38,746 nt of DNA from a virus (Duplodnaviria > Heunggongvirae > Uroviricota > Caudoviricetes), in IMG/VR virus record IMGVR_UViG_2648501400_000020, positions 1-38,746 of that record, one strand, 5' to 3'. Below the pieces are notes generated by a model. It searched no databases. It was not told where the DNA came from and saw only the letters and a list, made by a program, of their open reading frames with translations. A program made the position numbers and the translations under genes. Shown here piece by piece: positions 22,224-38,746 of this stretch; positions within the stretch are counted from its first letter, which is position 1; each line of letters begins with the position of its first letter.

Positions 22224-22496
22224 AATGACGCCCTCTGGTGGTTTCTAAACCATCACCACCGTCAGGTTCCTAATCATCGGGTGGTGAGACGTACAGGGTT
22301 AGGAACTACCGGGAAACCAACCGGCGAGCTTTTCAGCTCCCCCATACGCCCCACCATAATTCAGATGTGCGCGTGCATACGACAATAAAAAACACGCTCG
22401 CGGCGTGTGTCTGTCGCGGTCTCTATCCGGGGTTCCTAATCCCGACGCCAGATTTTGCTGGCGCGTGAGGAATATAGCCCCGGATAACAGATTGAG

Positions 22497-23338: not shown

Positions 23339-23937
23339 TACGCAAACTCCAGCAGCTGCACGGCCACATTTTCGACTTGTTCCGGAGAGGAAAATTTACG
23401 GAACAGAATCCAGTTCCACAGCACATTCAGTACAGATTTATAAACCTGCTGAAACTCGGTTTCGTCCATATTCGCAAACGAGATGGATTTCGCCCTGCGC
23501 CCACGGCTACCGTCCGGATAAATATGCTCGGTGTAAAATCCGGCCTGAATGGTTACCCACTCGCGGAAAGCGTCAAACGACTTTAGCAATGCCGTATCCC
23601 GGGTTCTGCGTGTTGCAACTGTATTCAGATATTGCTCTGCGGCTTGGCTCAGAGCTGGCGTATGTTCCCGACCTACTGATTCACACAGGTAATCAACGAA
23701 ACCAGACAGCAGTTCTCGTTCGCGAGGCGTGATCGCCCCACCGACCGGAGTCCAGTAATCGAATCCCAATTGCAGGAGTTTGAAAAAACGCTTGTGGAAT
23801 GCGTAGTTACGCACACGCTTAAAGTCTGCGTGTATCCACTCGCCTATTTTTATTTGATGCAAAAAATCGCAACTCTCCGGCGTCGCCGGGAGAAGTAATC
23901 CGGAAGAGGTTTGTTTGACCAGTTGTATATGCGCCAT
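23338..23937 (-). CDS. Conserved nin-region protein (DUF1367-like)
   Basis: 199 aa ORF coupled to the YbcO-like gene. Confidence 0.4.
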   Translation of the reverse strand: MAHIQLVKQTSSGLLLPATPESCDFLHQIKIGEWIHADFKRVRNYAFHKRFFKLLQLGFDYWTPVGGAITPRERELLSGFVDYLCESVGREHTPALSQAAEQYLNTVATRRTRDTALLKSFDAFREWVTIQAGFYTEHIYPDGSRGRRAKSISFANMDETEFQQVYKSVLNVLWNWILFRKFSSPEQVENVAVQLLEFA

Positions 23938-24495: not shown

Positions 24496-24651
24496 TTACT
24501 TCTCAGATTCGTAGGCTACGAAGACAGCGACCTCCATCTGGCCGGTTCGGATTCGTACCTCGCAGAGGTCTTTCCTCGTTACCAGTGCCGTCACTATGAC
24601 GGTTAAACAGATGGCGATCAGGGCGATTAACATCGCCTTTTGCTGCTTCAT
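24496..24651 (-). CDS. hok: Hok/Gef-family type I toxin (51 aa); below the ORF-track length cutoff
   Basis: My translation: MKQQKAMLIALIAICLTVIVTALVTRKDLCEVRIRTGQMEVAVFVAYESEK; AAGGAG Shine-Dalgarno; short upstream ORF ends overlapping the start codon. Confidence 0.85.
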   Translation of the reverse strand: MKQQKAMLIALIAICLTVIVTALVTRKDLCEVRIRTGQMEVAVFVAYESEK

Positions 24652-24909
24652 AGCCTGCTTCTCCTTGACCTTTCGGTCCGTAAGAGGCTAATCTCTATGT
24701 GTCGCATAGATATGGCCTCAGATTAATGTTAAGCGTCTTGCCGGACGCGTAATGTTAACTGGGGCTTTTCTCTATCTGCCTTTTGGTGTTCATGCCTGAG
24801 ACAGATAGCCTCAAGCACCCACAGTCATTCTACTTAACTAAGATTTCCCTGCAAACCGTTTTTGTCCGGCACAGTAAATATCCAACTAAACCAATAGCGT
24901 TCGCTGTAT

Positions 24910-27447: not shown

Positions 27448-28194
27448 TCACTTCGCAATTCCTGGCTGGACGACATTCGGACGCCAGCTCTCCCAGTTAA
27501 AATTCACCCATCGCCCGCCGTTCATGGTCATGCGATCCATAATCCTCTCGCCGAGCAATGTTTTCATGGCCTCATAGTTCAGGTTTGTCAGCATCCCCAC
27601 GCTGCGCATCGACGCTGTCCGGCGATCAACAATCTGGTGCAGCACCACCTGCTCGTTTTTTGTCTCGCGCTGAATGCCAATTTCATCAAGAACCAGCAGA
27701 TCCACTTCGCACAGTTCCCGCAAAAATTTTTCGCCTGACTGCCCGTCGTCATAGCTGGCGTGCAGGGCGCTCATAACATCAGCCACGGTAACCACAATCA
27801 CTGTCTGACCGTCTTTCAGCAGGCGATTCCCGATAGCTGCCGCTAAGTGATTCTTCCCGGTACCAGGTTTTCCGCTGAACGCAAAATTTGTACACCCGGT
27901 CATCAGTTCATCGGCGATGGATTTCGCCTGGCTTAACGCGTATCGCTGGCCGTCGTTCTGCACCTGGTAATTCGCAAACGAGCATTTACGGTGCAACGGC
28001 TGGATGCCTGAGCGATTCAGAATTTTTTCCACCCGCAACTGGCGATTCAGGCGGTTGATCTCCTCGCTACGTTTCTGGCCTTCAGCAAGTTGCCACTCGC
28101 GCCACTCCGCTACCGTTCTGAATGGGGCGGTTACATGTGGTGGGGTCAGTCTGCGGATACGCTCCAGAACGCCGCCTGTCGCAATATTTTTCAT
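27448..28194 (-). CDS. DnaC-like replicative helicase loader (IstB-type AAA+ ATPase)
   Basis: Walker [16 protein letters not shown] and Walker B-like LLVLDEIG; 248 aa, directly downstream of O-like initiator. Confidence 0.8.
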
Positions 28195-28200
28195 GGTCTG

Positions 28201-28989
28201 TTACCCCCTGAAGCCTGGCGGGATCGCACTATCCGGCAACGAGACGGTGTTAACCTGTCGGAGCAACGTCTCAGGCCGAACACCTTTCGGTGCGAACAAG
28301 CCCTGGTATTCATTGGCGATGCTGTGTCGAATCACCTGCTCAGGTGTAAAACCCTGCTGACGGAATTTTTCCAGTTCCCGTATCGCCCCGTTAGCGCCCT
28401 GCTCCGTTCGAATCGGTTTTCGCAATGCCTGTCTGAACCGGACCCACTCATGCCAGAGTGTTTCCGGCAACCAATCGGGCAGCTCAATAGCCTCCGGCTC
28501 GAATTTTTTAGACGCTCGTTTTTGGCGAGGGGGATTTAGGGGGAGATCAGTATTTATATCTTCCTCTTCCTCTTCCTCTGGTAACGCTTTTTGATCCGTT
28601 TGTGTAACGCTGCCAGCGTTATCTTTTCGTTTCAGTTCGCGTATTTTTGTAACTCGCTCGTTTGTAACCGCCCGTTTTTTAGAGCTTTTTCCGTTATGAC
28701 GTTCAAAGTTAGGTAGAGAAAGCCCACCGTCATTTTCGACCAGCCATCCAACCTGAATTAACGCATCAGCAAAACCAGCCATAAAAGTGATGCGGTCTAT
28801 TGCACTTTTTGTAACGCCGCGAGCGTTACAATCTGCATTACCGTCTATCATTTGTTGATCCGCCCATGCCCAGAAGCGAATAACCTTCCCTAATGCGGCA
28901 TCTGGATCAATATTCAGAATCTCAGCAAGCCTGAATATTTCCGGCTTATCCGGCGTAATAACCTCGAGCTTTATCCAGTTTGAAGCCAT
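28201..28989 (-). CDS. Replication initiator / replisome organiser (lambda O-like position)
   Basis: 262 aa with acidic EEEEEED linker; three palindromic iteron-like repeats lie in and just upstream of the gene. Confidence 0.6.
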   Translation of the reverse strand: MASNWIKLEVITPDKPEIFRLAEILNIDPDAALGKVIRFWAWADQQMIDGNADCNARGVTKSAIDRITFMAGFADALIQVGWLVENDGGLSLPNFERHNGKSSKKRAVTNERVTKIRELKRKDNAGSVTQTDQKALPEEEEEEDINTDLPLNPPRQKRASKKFEPEAIELPDWLPETLWHEWVRFRQALRKPIRTEQGANGAIRELEKFRQQGFTPEQVIRHSIANEYQGLFAPKGVRPETLLRQVNTVSLPDSAIPPGFRG

Positions 28990-29022
28990 TTGTTTTCACC
29001 TTGTAACGCTCGCAGCGTTACA
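28603..29022. repeat. Three copies of a 19-bp palindrome GTAACGC-N5-GCGTTAC (28604-28622 imperfect, 28811-28829, 29003-29021), candidate origin iterons
   Basis: Read directly from sequence; spacing about 200 bp; extra GTAAC half-sites at 28581-28668. Confidence 0.55.
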
Positions 29023-29066
29023 TTTAACTGATACCGAACAAAACAATCCGGCACGATTAATTTCAA

Positions 29067-29489
29067 TCAATGCACTACGACAGAATCGCCGGGCGACCCA
29101 CCACCGCTGAAATGTGCTTTCCGGTAAACGGCCTGGACTGCATCATCATGCGCATCAATTGCCGTACTCAACGCTTCCTGCGCCGCCAGTAATGCACGGC
29201 GTTCCAGGGTATCGAAGATGCAGAGTCGGTGACGCAGCTCGCGCGGAAGAATTGCCAGAACCGCAGGGATCAGTTTCTGAATTTTTTCCCTTTGCGCTTT
29301 CGTTTCACCTTTCAACCAACGGTGATAGATATTCTGCTGATTGTTCCAGTCCTTGCCTAGTACAAGGGGCAATTCGCCGCCCCCCTGGCGCAGATATTCT
29401 TCAGTAATTGCGTTAGCGACCCACGCCTGCCCTTTTTCGGCTGCCAGGGCTAACAACACTGATTCGATGTGCTCATGCCTGATTTTCAT
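29067..29489 (-). CDS. cII-position protein, YdaT-like (Rac prophage type)
   Basis: 140 aa, translationally coupled (ATGA) to the cro-like gene, upstream of replication genes. Confidence 0.55.
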   Translation of the reverse strand: MKIRHEHIESVLLALAAEKGQAWVANAITEEYLRQGGGELPLVLGKDWNNQQNIYHRWLKGETKAQREKIQKLIPAVLAILPRELRHRLCIFDTLERRALLAAQEALSTAIDAHDDAVQAVYRKAHFSGGGSPGDSVVVH

Positions 29490-29728
29490 GAATCAACCGC
29501 TCCTATGCTGTTTTCGCTATGCTTACCGTCTGGGGGGAATACATCGTCAAGTCCACAATGAGCGCCAAGCCGATTAAGGGTAGAAACAATTTTTCTGCAC
29601 TCCTCTAGTCCAGGGGTACGAAAATTTGCTTCGTAATTTGCCAGTCGGCTTTGTATCCACCCTAACTGAACAGCAAGTTGTCTTTGAGACAGCCCAAGCT
29701 GTTTTCGATATGTTGAAATTTTGTTCAT
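29486..29728 (-). CDS. Cro-like HTH transcriptional regulator (YdaS-like)
   Basis: 80 aa with HTH motif LGLSQRQLAVQLGWIQSRLANYE; divergent from repressor gene; GGAGG Shine-Dalgarno. Confidence 0.65.
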   Translation of the reverse strand: MNKISTYRKQLGLSQRQLAVQLGWIQSRLANYEANFRTPGLEECRKIVSTLNRLGAHCGLDDVFPPDGKHSENSIGAVDS

Positions 29729-29824: not shown

Positions 29825-30244
29825 ATGGAAAAAGAAAACGAAAAAATTGCCGCTAGTAGGCTCAATGACAAAATTGCAATGCGTCTTAAAGAGCGCAGGC
29901 AGAAGCTTGGTTTATCTCAAGGAAAACTTGCTGAAATCTGCGGATGGACGCAATCGCGTATAGGTAACTATGAGGCGGGCAGCAGAAATGTTGGAGTGCA
30001 TGACGCTGTCGTATTGGGAAAGGCACTTGGCATATCTCCTCCTGAGCTCCTCTTTGGAGAACAGGAATCTTCTGAATTGTGGTTAAATGAATCCCAACGA
30101 AAACTTCTTGAGTTGTTTAACCAGCTACCGGGCTCAGAACAACAACGAATGATTGAGCTATTTGAAGTCCGGCTAAAAGAAATCGATGAGTATGTAGAAA
30201 AATATTTGAGAGGCAGGCTTAAAGATAATCCCCCACCGGAGTAA
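29825..30244 (+). CDS. Prophage repressor, HTH XRE-type without peptidase domain (RacR-like)
   Basis: 139 aa with HTH LGLSQGKLAEICGWTQSRIGNYE; divergent from cro-like gene; followed by a strong terminator. Confidence 0.75.
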   Translation: MEKENEKIAASRLNDKIAMRLKERRQKLGLSQGKLAEICGWTQSRIGNYEAGSRNVGVHDAVVLGKALGISPPELLFGEQESSELWLNESQRKLLELFNQLPGSEQQRMIELFEVRLKEIDEYVEKYLRGRLKDNPPPE

Positions 30245-30703: not shown

Positions 30704-31111
30704 ACCATTTATTGGATTAATTCAATATTCTTGCTGTAGGGGTATAGCCGAGGCCACCAAAGCCCGGAGGTGGTGAAATAAAACCGGGCACAACACGAAG
30801 GCGCATTTCCGGTATCCATAAAGAGTCGGTCTTGTCTGTTAAATTTAAATGGTGGGAGTGCGCCTCCGGTTGTAAATAACGACATTGCTATGTGTAGTCT
30901 TTGGCGGCATCAGTTCTACTCCGTGGCTGCCCTGCCGCCCCTTTTTAAAGTGAATTTTGTGATGCGGTGAATGCGGCTAAGCGCACGCGGCACAGTTAAA
31001 AGCATCAGTGTTATGGGTGGATTATCCGGCGTTAATTGTTAACTGGTTAACGTCACCTGGAGGCACCAGGCACCGCATCGACAAAATTCATTTGTAAAAA
31101 TGGAGATAATT

Positions 31112-36207: not shown

Positions 36208-36402
36208 ATGCGGTATGAAAAAGTCAAACCATGTCCGTTTTGTGGTTGTCCATCAGTAACGGTGAAAGCCATTTCAGGATATTACCGCGCAAAGTGTAAC
36301 GGATGCGAATCCCGAACCGGCTATAGTGGAAGTGAAAAAGAAGCACTCGAAAGATGGAATAAACGAACTACTGGAAATAATAATGGAGGTGTTCATGTAT
36401 AA
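36208..36402 (+). CDS. Lar-like restriction alleviation protein (zinc finger)
   Basis: 64 aa from ATG 36208; CPFCGC...CNGC motif typical of the Lar family. Confidence 0.5.
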   Translation: MRYEKVKPCPFCGCPSVTVKAISGYYRAKCNGCESRTGYSGSEKEALERWNKRTTGNNNGGVHV

Positions 36403-36583
36403 AATTACTGCCACTATTGAAAAGGAAGGTGGCACTCCTACTAACTGGACAAGATATTCAAAATCTAAATTAACGAAATCAGAATGCGAAAAAATGCTCT
36501 CAGGGAAAAAAGAAGCAGGCGTTTCCAGAGAGCAGAAAGTAAAGCTGATAAATTTTAATTGCGAGAAACTTCTGTCCTCGTGA
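36395..36583 (+). CDS. Small hypothetical protein (YdaC-like position)
   Basis: 62 aa from ATG 36395 with GGAGG Shine-Dalgarno; overlaps end of Lar-like gene. Confidence 0.3.
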   Translation: MYKITATIEKEGGTPTNWTRYSKSKLTKSECEKMLSGKKEAGVSREQKVKLINFNCEKLLSS

Positions 36584-38078: not shown

Positions 38079-38144
38079 GAAATTCGAGTAAATTTCGGGG
38101 AATTTCGGGAAGACGTTTGCAACTGATTGATTTTAAATACAATT

Positions 38145-38247
38145 AAAAAAAGACCGAATACGATTCCTGTATTCGGTCCAGGGAAATGGCTCTTGGGAGA
38201 GAGCCGTGCGCTAAAAGTTGGCATTAATGCAGGCTTAGTTGCCTTGC
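38145..38247 (-). ncRNA. sdsR: SdsR (RyeB)-like small RNA with intrinsic terminator
   Basis: Minus-strand transcript beginning GCAAGGCAACUAAGCCUGCAUUAAUGCC and ending in hairpin GACCGAAUACAGGAAUCGUAUUCGGUC plus U-run; lies between a yebY-like gene and the prophage as in the enterobacterial ryeA/ryeB locus. Confidence 0.5.
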
Positions 38248-38334
38248 TCTTTAAGAATAGATGACGACGCCAGGTTTTCCAGTTTGCGTGCAAAATGGTC
38301 AATAAAAAGCGTGGGGGTCATCAGCTTAAATGTT

Positions 38335-38404: not shown

Positions 38405-38746
38405 TTAACAGAGTTTTTCAGCTCGCTCTATAAACGGTGCCAGACTCATTTTTTCGCCGGGATTGTTAGGATCATCAATCTGAATCACCGAAATGAGTTG
38501 GGCTTTAGTCTTCCCACTGGCAACTTCCTTTTGTGCGATATCGTTTAAAGGATACTGCACGAGGGTACTTGGGTTGATGACATACAAAGCATTACCTGGT
38601 CGGCAAGCCAGCATCACCTCTTCGCGATTAAACGCCCATTTGTCTTTACCCACTTCAAAACGGCTGACGGTAATCACCTGCGGTGCCGCCAGCGCAGCTG
38701 CAGAACTGGTGAGTAACAGAAACGCCAGAATACTTTTTTTCATCAT
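38405..38746 (-). CDS. Host-type secreted protein with signal peptide (YebY-like)
   Basis: 113 aa, N-terminal [20 protein letters not shown] signal peptide; lies outside the prophage beyond the sRNA locus. Confidence 0.5.

Follow-up and report, generated by a model that had tools for sequence, protein, structure and literature searches.

What is the role of a 19-bp palindrome that occurs three times in and just before the gene of a phage replication initiator? The question is raised by the Caudoviricetes sequence IMGVR_UViG_2648501400_000020 of IMG/VR, of which we analyzed positions 1 to 38,746 (the whole of this stretch is called the window hereafter). The genes of its initiator locus are on the minus strand, and the initiator itself, a protein of 262 residues, is encoded at 28201-28989(-). 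From comparison with a large number of related loci, we consider it likely that the palindromes are the initiator's own recognition sites, and that they are part of a lambda-type origin embedded in the initiator gene.

We searched the 38,746-base window for GTAACGCNNNNNGCGTTAC (GTAACGC-N5-GCGTTAC), allowing up to two mismatches, and obtained the expected count from 100 dinucleotide-preserving shuffles. Exactly three matches are present versus 0.13 expected, and none of the 100 shuffles reaches three. The initiator gene and the sequence directly 5' of it hold all three, the rest of the window none, and their centres are 192 and 207 bp apart. Only the complete 19-bp palindrome is exclusive to the initiator locus: the bare 7-mer GTAACGC has 12 copies in the window, six of which are at this locus, and is therefore not rare. 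A first-pass annotation of the same DNA had reported these three palindromes, the one at 28604 with a single mismatch, two of them in coding sequence and one between the stop of the upstream gene and the initiator start, together with extra GTAAC half-sites around 28581-28668, and had proposed a genome-wide count of the motif. Its description proved accurate, the half-sites being located at 28581, 28649 and 28664, and the motif is not common throughout the window. From 5' to 3' on the gene strand, the elements are the following:

29002-29022: site U, in the intergenic spacer between ydaT and the initiator gene; perfect palindrome at 29003-29021, extended form TGTAACGCT-CGC-AGCGTTACA.
28835-28841: degenerate half-site, read GCATTAC (plus strand) or GTAATGC (gene strand) and located 12 bp before site A.
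28809-28831: site A, codons 54-60, in the N-domain; perfect palindrome at 28811-28829, extended form TTGTAACGC-CGCGA-GCGTTACAA.
28649-28653 and 28664-28668: two GTAAC half-sites, upstream of site B on the gene strand, whose positions are kept in the Rac-like group.
28604-28622: site B, GTAACGC-TGCCA-GCGTTAT, with one mismatch (last base T, not C); codons 123-129, in the basic linker.
28581-28587: last half-site, read GTAACGC (plus strand) or GCGTTAC (gene strand); the polypurine tract follows immediately.
28544-28580, minus strand: polypurine and AT-rich tract, (GAGGAA)n on the gene strand, AT-rich with GATC, encoding PEEEEEEDINTD; proposed DNA-unwinding element.

Site U occupies part of the 77-bp ydaT/initiator spacer, 14-32 nt 5' of the ATG, and abuts the Shine-Dalgarno sequence AAGGTGA. 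Its symmetry extends to 9-bp arms (TGTAACGCT-N3-AGCGTTACA), and so does that of site A (TTGTAACGC-N5-GCGTTACAA), which is translated C-N-A-R-G-V-T; the codons of site B are translated DNAGSVT. The degenerate half-site falls inside a 12-nt (four-codon) insertion that is specific to the Rac-like group, and is a perfect GTAACGC in locus L004. Through this insertion, 'DCNA' or 'ECNA' in translation (window 28830-28841, against L005-L012), the left half-site of site A is present a second time, and both copies are perfect GTAACGC in L004.

To follow the sites across relatives, which were drawn from viral contigs, bacterial genomes being represented by Escherichia coli only, we used a close-relative set of 80 from IMG/VR and a lineage set of 234 genes that form 57 lineages (clusters of the N-domain at 85% identity; gene GC content 39-63%). 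Among the close relatives, the 7-bp arms are near-invariant and the five central bases variable. All three sites are kept in 78 of the 80, one lacking the third site and one the upstream site; site U is kept in 79, with at least eight different central spacers, and site B is perfect in 73 and one mismatch off in six. A tblastn search with the N-domain recovered 59 phages of Escherichia, Salmonella, Klebsiella, Vibrio, Pseudomonas, Xanthomonas, Xylella, Ralstonia and others. In phages whose protein is 42-65% identical, and whose locus ranges from 47 to 66% GC, GTAACGC-N5-GCGTTAC recurs with zero to two mismatches at two positions relative to the ATG, +148 to +160 and +355 to +367. Of the 57 lineages, 50 carry a same-class palindrome for site A (+148 to +160), 50 carry one for site B (+338 to +385), and 48 carry the two together. 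The upstream copy is confined to Rac-like lineages (6/57), where it lies at -32/-33, -44 or -99, and occurs only where an intergenic spacer exists. The distance from A to B is 207-216 bp in the named phages and varies more widely across all lineages, and that from U to A is 192-247 bp.

The reading frame of site B differs between lineages (frames 1, 2 and 0 in 33, 12 and 7 cases, that is, all three frames), and in TL-2011b and a Klebsiella phage the DNA of this site is read as VTPTALQ, not as xNAxxVT. Inside site A, the alanine codon is GCT in 13 of 15 high-GC lineages versus 21% GCT elsewhere in the same genes, a test in which only alanine was counted, the asparagine and valine codons being fixed by the search pattern. 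Moreover, the sequence of the arms, and not just their pairing, is conserved over 40-99% protein identity. These comparisons demonstrate that the sites are selected at the DNA level and are tied to the N-domain of the initiator across very distant phages. On the same comparative evidence, hundreds of phages that infect very different bacteria have this palindrome system in common, the sequence of their sites changing in a matching way.

The geometry of the sites, with 5-bp outer half-sites and a 9-bp gap, is kept while the sequence of the half-sites differs between lineages, which can be assigned to the following classes:

GTAAC(GC): the majority class.
GTCAC: nine N-domain clusters (85% identity level).
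GTCCGC: the epsilon15 group, first site at +65.
GTTGC: one lineage.
GTAGAC/GTCTAC: three lineages, with a 20-bp span.

Both in-gene palindromes and the lone half-sites of a given phage belong to the same class, with the single exception of L159, and the class follows the lineage of the N-domain. The L159 locus has a mixed-class array, its palindrome being of the GTAAC class and its last half-site, beside the purine tract, being GTGAC. In epsilon15, the palindrome of the corresponding class has only two copies in 39.7 kb, both in the initiator gene. The aligned loci show that a change of half-site sequence affects every site of a phage in concert and goes with the N-domain lineage. The symmetry of the sites is as expected for the dimeric binder suggested in the first-pass annotation, and the co-variation of their sequence with the N-domain agrees with it; the same co-variation and the selection at the DNA level support, as far as sequence can tell, its proposal that the sites mark an origin-like region of a replication initiator gene.

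Site B is part of a cluster of half-sites at +321 to +408 of the gene (window 28581-28668), in the linker between the two domains of the protein. When the loci are aligned on site B, extra half-sites recur at -12/-11 in left-arm orientation and at +25 in right-arm orientation, the latter 11 bp after the right arm, giving an array -> -> <- <- with a period of about one helical turn. The array of the window departs slightly from this family norm: two GTTAC half-sites (+321 and +336) precede the palindrome (+367), and the last half-site (+402) comes two turns after the right arm. In every class, the last half-site is followed by CC or CT, and then by a polypurine repeat of 20-25 nt, (AGAGA)n or, in the Rac-like group, (GAGGAA)n, which runs into an AT-rich stretch. 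The core of this tract (28559-28579, 21 nt) is the only purine/pyrimidine run of at least 16 nt in the window; the corresponding tract is the only long run of this kind in Xanthomonas phage MET23-P3, and the longest of two in epsilon15. The region 28544-28580 is also the least stable 40-mer within the replication genes and ranks in the top 2.7% of the window. Averaged across 46 lineages, the segment 30-60 nt past the centre of site B is 61-71% AT (baseline ~44%) and 84-92% purine on the coding strand. In distant relatives, the repeat is a near-invariant (AGAGA)4-5, read as a cyclic permutation of REEKR in any frame. A search based on DNA only, with GTTACC[AT]AGAGAAGAGAAGAG, retrieved at least 120 viral contigs with one match each, and an N-domain hidden Markov model matched the translation immediately upstream in 110 of the 111 contigs that could be evaluated.

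Directly after the purine tract, we observed a C-run motif, CCCCCTAAATCCCCC on the gene strand, encoding PLNPP (window ~28523-28545, L001 ~1922-1947). It is common to ydaU of E. coli K-12 and to many distant family members, where it marks the start of the common DnaT-like module, and it may represent a junction for module exchange.

Concerning the initiator protein, two domains can be delineated:

28615-28989, minus strand: N-terminal domain, residues 1-125; predicted helix-helix-helix-helix plus beta-hairpin.
28204-28481, minus strand: C-terminal domain, residues 170-262; DnaT-like, phmmer match to PDB 2ru8 and 9zbt DnaT, E 1e-4.

The full protein matches phrog_2509, 'replication initiation protein', in PHROGs (1.3e-89, residues 1-262), and its N-terminal 130 residues also match phrog_9474; the names of the matching PHROGs are 'replication initiation protein' or 'O-like'. 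In alignments, the conserved motifs of phrog_2509-type initiators (W5, K7, W40 and FxRHNG) are present in the window protein. By contrast, a Pfam scan found no family at E <=0.01, including the lambda O family (Phage_rep_O), and NCBIfam was likewise uninformative. AlphaFold2 models give the core of the N-domain a predicted local distance difference test score of 80-95, with helices at residues 16-25, 29-48, 61-68 and 73-80 and a beta-hairpin at 84-91, and a disordered linker at 124-161; from these models it is plausible, but not established, that the N-domain is a winged-helix-like DNA-binding domain. Residues 170-262 resemble the C-terminal domain of E. coli DnaT that binds single-stranded DNA (PDB 2ru8, E 1e-4).

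The genes around the initiator are arranged as follows:

29825-30244, plus strand: cI/RacR-like repressor.
29486-29728, minus strand: Cro-like helix-turn-helix protein.
29067-29489, minus strand: ydaT, the cII-equivalent, upstream gene of the same operon (Pfam YdaT_toxin, 5.4e-11).
27448-28194, minus strand: ydaV, encoding a DnaC/IstB-type AAA+ helicase loader, immediately 3' of the initiator (Pfam IstB_IS21, 1.3e-19, and Bac_DnaA; relatives are annotated ydaV).

After ydaV come genes for DUF1627 and DUF977 proteins, and the window also contains a RecE-like exonuclease, DicF, RalA and other prophage RNAs. By megablast, 1,635 of the 5,426 complete E. coli genomes contain the segment, within Rac-like prophages. 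Rfam matches at gathering level (window 22277-22477, 24649-24820, 30889-30940, 36401-36579 and 38141-38285) comprise the C4 antisense RNA and its target, isrK, sok, DicF, RalA, and SraC/RyeA with SdsR/RyeB, and fit a lambdoid prophage of the Rac/Qin type located next to ryeA. Two other repeats were observed. A 9-nt perfect inverted repeat, AATATTCAG-N13-CTGAATATT, lies at 28909-28939 in the coding region of the N-domain (codons ~17-27). At 1680-2250, there is a local excess of GTAAC/GTTAC pentamers (7 per 500 nt versus a mean of 1.3), including GGTAACCCGTTACC at 1791-1804; their spacing is unlike that of the 19-bp palindrome, and they are probably unrelated coding repeats.

An origin located inside the initiator gene is a known arrangement, and the best term of comparison is lambda, with the corresponding origins of other lambdoid phages. 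Gene O of lambda contains, at +348 to +433, four iterons of 18 bp, every one of them an inverted repeat (TCCCTC-N6-GAGGGA); the purine- and AT-rich sequence ACAAAAGAAAAAAGAAAAGATTATT follows on the coding strand. As in lambda, the repeats of the window are internal to the initiator gene and coincide with the linker that joins the N-domain, the putative DNA binder, to the C-domain, which would recruit the helicase loader, each repeat is internally dyad-symmetric, the repeat cluster precedes a purine-rich, AT-rich tract in the same order of elements and at the same position in the gene, and the downstream gene encodes a helicase-loading partner. Unlike in lambda, there is no tandem array of four (three to six) full iterons at ~20-bp spacing, additional palindromes stand ~207 bp upstream in the whole family and ~400 bp upstream in the Rac-like group only, and the purine tract consists of an (AGAGA)n or (GAGGAA)n repeat that hardly varies. 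The protein differs too, with no Pfam match to the O family, a DnaT-like C-domain, and a partner that is DnaC-like and not lambda P. The first-pass annotation had set its sites, 'palindromic and widely spaced rather than tandem', apart from those of lambda. This contrast is valid for sites A and U, but not for the cluster around 28604, which is compact and has the same position in the gene; palindromy itself does not separate the two systems, since the lambda iterons are themselves inverted repeats. Its designation of the gene as O-like is not borne out by Pfam, by which the protein is no lambda O homologue; it has a different N-domain, fused to a DnaT-like C-domain.

The Rac prophage of E. 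coli K-12 has the same operon order (cI-like / cro-like-ydaT-initiator-ydaV-DUF1627) and ~93% DNA identity in the matched flanks, including ydaT and the C-terminal half of ydaU. However, megablast covers only these flanks (52%), and the N-terminal half of ydaU is different, with no N-domain PHROGs in common; in K-12 it is unrelated and annotated DUF1376, which our Pfam scan did not pick up. At +390 to +470 of K-12 ydaU (L001 1985-2070) we found TGTTCAAACA twice as direct repeats and TGTTTGAACA inverted, plus TTSAACATC variants; as in the window, this repeat cluster is followed by a tract, A-rich and containing GATC, and then by CCCCCTAAATCCCCC at the same position. N-domain and repeats have been exchanged together between K-12 and the window, as expected for an initiator/origin cassette. 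The Rac origin, oriJ, has been studied only by genetics and with plasmids, as cited in two reports (PMC11014345, PMC3945230). The MG1655 RefSeq record has no origin annotation in Rac. The repeat region of K-12 ydaU is probably oriJ at the sequence level.

Salmonella phage epsilon15 offers a further comparison. Its gp42, annotated 'DNA replication protein', belongs to the same family (phrog_2509 / phrog_9474), with 32% N-domain identity and a DnaT-like C-domain. Epsilon15 too has two in-gene palindromes, with a -> -> <- <- array at +333 to +375 and an identical (AGAGA)n tract; unlike the window, its half-site is GTCCGC, its first site is at +65 and not +150, and it has no upstream site. The GenBank record of this phage, although richly annotated, marks no origin. 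In epsilon15 (L010 342-1511) and in Vibrio phage 1.211.B (L011 504-1508, 2889 onward), the initiator gene is directly preceded and overlapped by genes for C5-cytosine methylases.

Iteron-plasmid Rep proteins (pSC101 RepA, F RepE, R6K pi), whose plasmids have iterons in ori and an inverted-repeat operator at the rep gene, are also comparable, in that the initiator is winged-helix-like, which from the models is plausible here too, half-sites occur both inverted and in the same orientation, and in the Rac-like group an inverted repeat stands immediately before the initiator gene. Unlike the autoregulatory operator of these plasmids, this inverted repeat overlaps no sigma-70-like promoter, the initiator gene lying inside an early operon.

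If the palindromes are indeed recognized by the initiator, a mechanism can be proposed. Dimers of the winged-helix-like N-domain would bind each 19-bp palindrome, in which the half-sites GTAAC(GC) start 14 bp apart, and the extra half-sites, about one helical turn apart, would allow a higher-order complex to form at 28581-28668. This cluster would constitute the origin core together with the purine tract, with site B as its core initiator site. Cooperative occupancy would distort the DNA and open the (GAGGAA)n/AT-rich tract at 28544-28580, where the DnaT-like C-domain, with the DnaC-like YdaV, would then bring host DnaB. Site A may be a family-wide auxiliary site that stabilizes the complex by looping or serves as a second loading point. 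The weakest step concerns site U, at which, in the Rac-like group only, the initiator might limit read-through into its own gene; the site could act as a transcriptional roadblock or as an mRNA hairpin beside the Shine-Dalgarno sequence, both being possible.

Several other explanations have to be weighed. The palindromes might be bound by the initiator chiefly for regulation, for example as operators in copy-number control or in autorepression through a roadblock or a loop, the true origin being elsewhere or consisting of the purine tract alone, recognized in another way. Sites U and A are complete inverted repeats, a property shared with the operators through which iteron-plasmid Rep proteins regulate themselves, site U lies immediately before the gene, and MET23-P3 has extra sites outside it. 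However, the site B array is physically locked to the polypurine/AT-rich tract in every class, which is the known layout of an origin, no promoter overlaps the sites, and most members of the family lack the upstream site, so that we regard this explanation as unlikely. The autoregulatory role that the first-pass annotation had envisaged for the copy before the ATG is supported by nothing but the position of this copy; our promoter/terminator scan found no sigma-70-like promoter in 28450-29250, and hence none overlapping site U, and the copy is present in Rac-like lineages only. A hairpin in the early-operon mRNA, controlling translation, processing or stability with no DNA binding, would fit the folding of each palindrome into a 7-10 bp hairpin (z-scores -2.3 to -2.9), the contact of site U with the Shine-Dalgarno sequence, and the symmetry of the class switches, which preserves pairing. 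As symmetric switching fits a dimer and a hairpin alike, positions 7 and 13 of the palindrome were used to separate them. There, 25 departures from C:G among 74 unique GTAAC-class sites include none that is compensated, and 15 of 17 sites of the GTCCGC class have A:A or T:T, which indicates selection on the half-site sequence and not on base pairing. The conservation of the arms at low protein identity goes beyond pairing too, isolated half-sites at one-turn spacing cannot pair, no Rfam model matches the palindromes, and the terminator scan found no U-run on the gene strand at the sites and only a chance-level antisense terminator-like match at site B. We hold the hairpin explanation to be very improbable.

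About equally improbable is that the palindromes are bound by a different factor, whether YdaT/cII, the repressor of the prophage or Cro, a host factor, or the DNA methylase of a neighbouring gene. It is true that YdaT and the Cro-like and cI-like regulators are encoded just upstream, and that C5-methylase genes flank the initiator gene in epsilon15 and a Vibrio phage. Yet the initiator gene is the sole gene present in every locus examined. Rac-like prophages, epsilon15-like podoviruses and the phages of Xanthomonas, Pseudomonas, Vibrio and Ralstonia have completely different genes around it, and their hosts belong to several orders. The class of the half-sites goes with the lineage of the N-domain, and a search for DnaA boxes and IHF consensus sites found none. 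We rejected YdaT as the binder, as its operator, TTGATT-N6-AATCAA (PMC9986795), is unlike the palindromes, and a host-factor site was rejected on host range. Finally, the palindromes could be a by-product of coding a repeated peptide, xNAxxVT, or be due to chance, and sites A and B of the window do both read N-A-x-x-V-T. The shuffles never reach the observed count, the arms are conserved also in the copy outside coding sequence, site B occurs in three frames, and the alanine codon is biased at site A; the peptide-repeat explanation, contradicted by the frame and intergenic evidence, was rejected, and the probability we give to coding or chance is close to nil.

Recognition by the initiator as part of an embedded origin remains the reading that we favour, though a number of points weigh against it. 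The putative core contains one full palindrome and one to three half-sites, compared with four iterons in lambda. The mismatch in site B is absent from most relatives, so the origin of this prophage may be slightly decayed. The palindromes are not spaced at a constant helical phase, a point that tells against looping: the A-to-B distance is set by coding length and is not phase-locked, and looping is therefore possible but not indicated. The symmetric class switches, as discussed above, are expected from a hairpin as much as from a dimeric protein. Xanthomonas phage MET23-P3 (L254) has two more perfect GTAACGC-N5-GCGTTAC palindromes outside the initiator gene, at 23373-23391 and 38699-38717, where chance predicts ~1e-4 per genome; since they are far from the gene, the sites may have roles besides that of an origin. 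Lastly, in a literature search of incomplete coverage, we found no report of binding, melting or origin activity for this initiator family.

A bolder proposal, which we put forward only tentatively and consider rather doubtful, is that these loci represent an unrecognized and widespread class of phage origin, in which a short initiator array is coupled to a near-invariant (AGAGA)n tract that would be the single-strand ligand of the DnaT-like domain. The origin-bound initiator would then work as a primosome that is directed by sequence and independent of PriA, and would pass DnaB to the purine strand once this is opened. The distal in-gene palindrome, and in Rac-like prophages also the copy before the ATG, would close a ~200-bp loop storing torsional stress for melting, and the half-site classes would be incompatibility or specificity groups, swappable at will.

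The database annotation and the literature on ydaU, oriJ, DnaT-like phage initiators and the purine repeat, within the incomplete coverage of our search, contain no description of an origin for this family. What is new here is the initiator family itself, the dispersed layout of two or three palindromes, the near-invariant polypurine repeat, the conservation of the DNA across phages of distant hosts, and the co-varying specificity classes. If the favoured reading is correct, it provides a sequence-level definition of the origin for a large uncharacterized family of phage and prophage initiators, found in at least several hundred viral contigs and spanning epsilon15-like phages of Salmonella and E. 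coli, Rac-like prophages of E. coli, and phages of Xanthomonas, Ralstonia, Pseudomonas and Vibrio. The combination of half-site and (AGAGA)n would be a simple DNA signature to annotate such origins, and would predict which cryptic Rac-like prophages still replicate after induction. Five or more half-site classes on one scaffold would represent a natural specificity-swap series to study how initiators read DNA, and how site and protein co-evolve where the site lies in the protein's own coding sequence. The family also points to a possible role of DnaT-like domains in origin-specific helicase loading.

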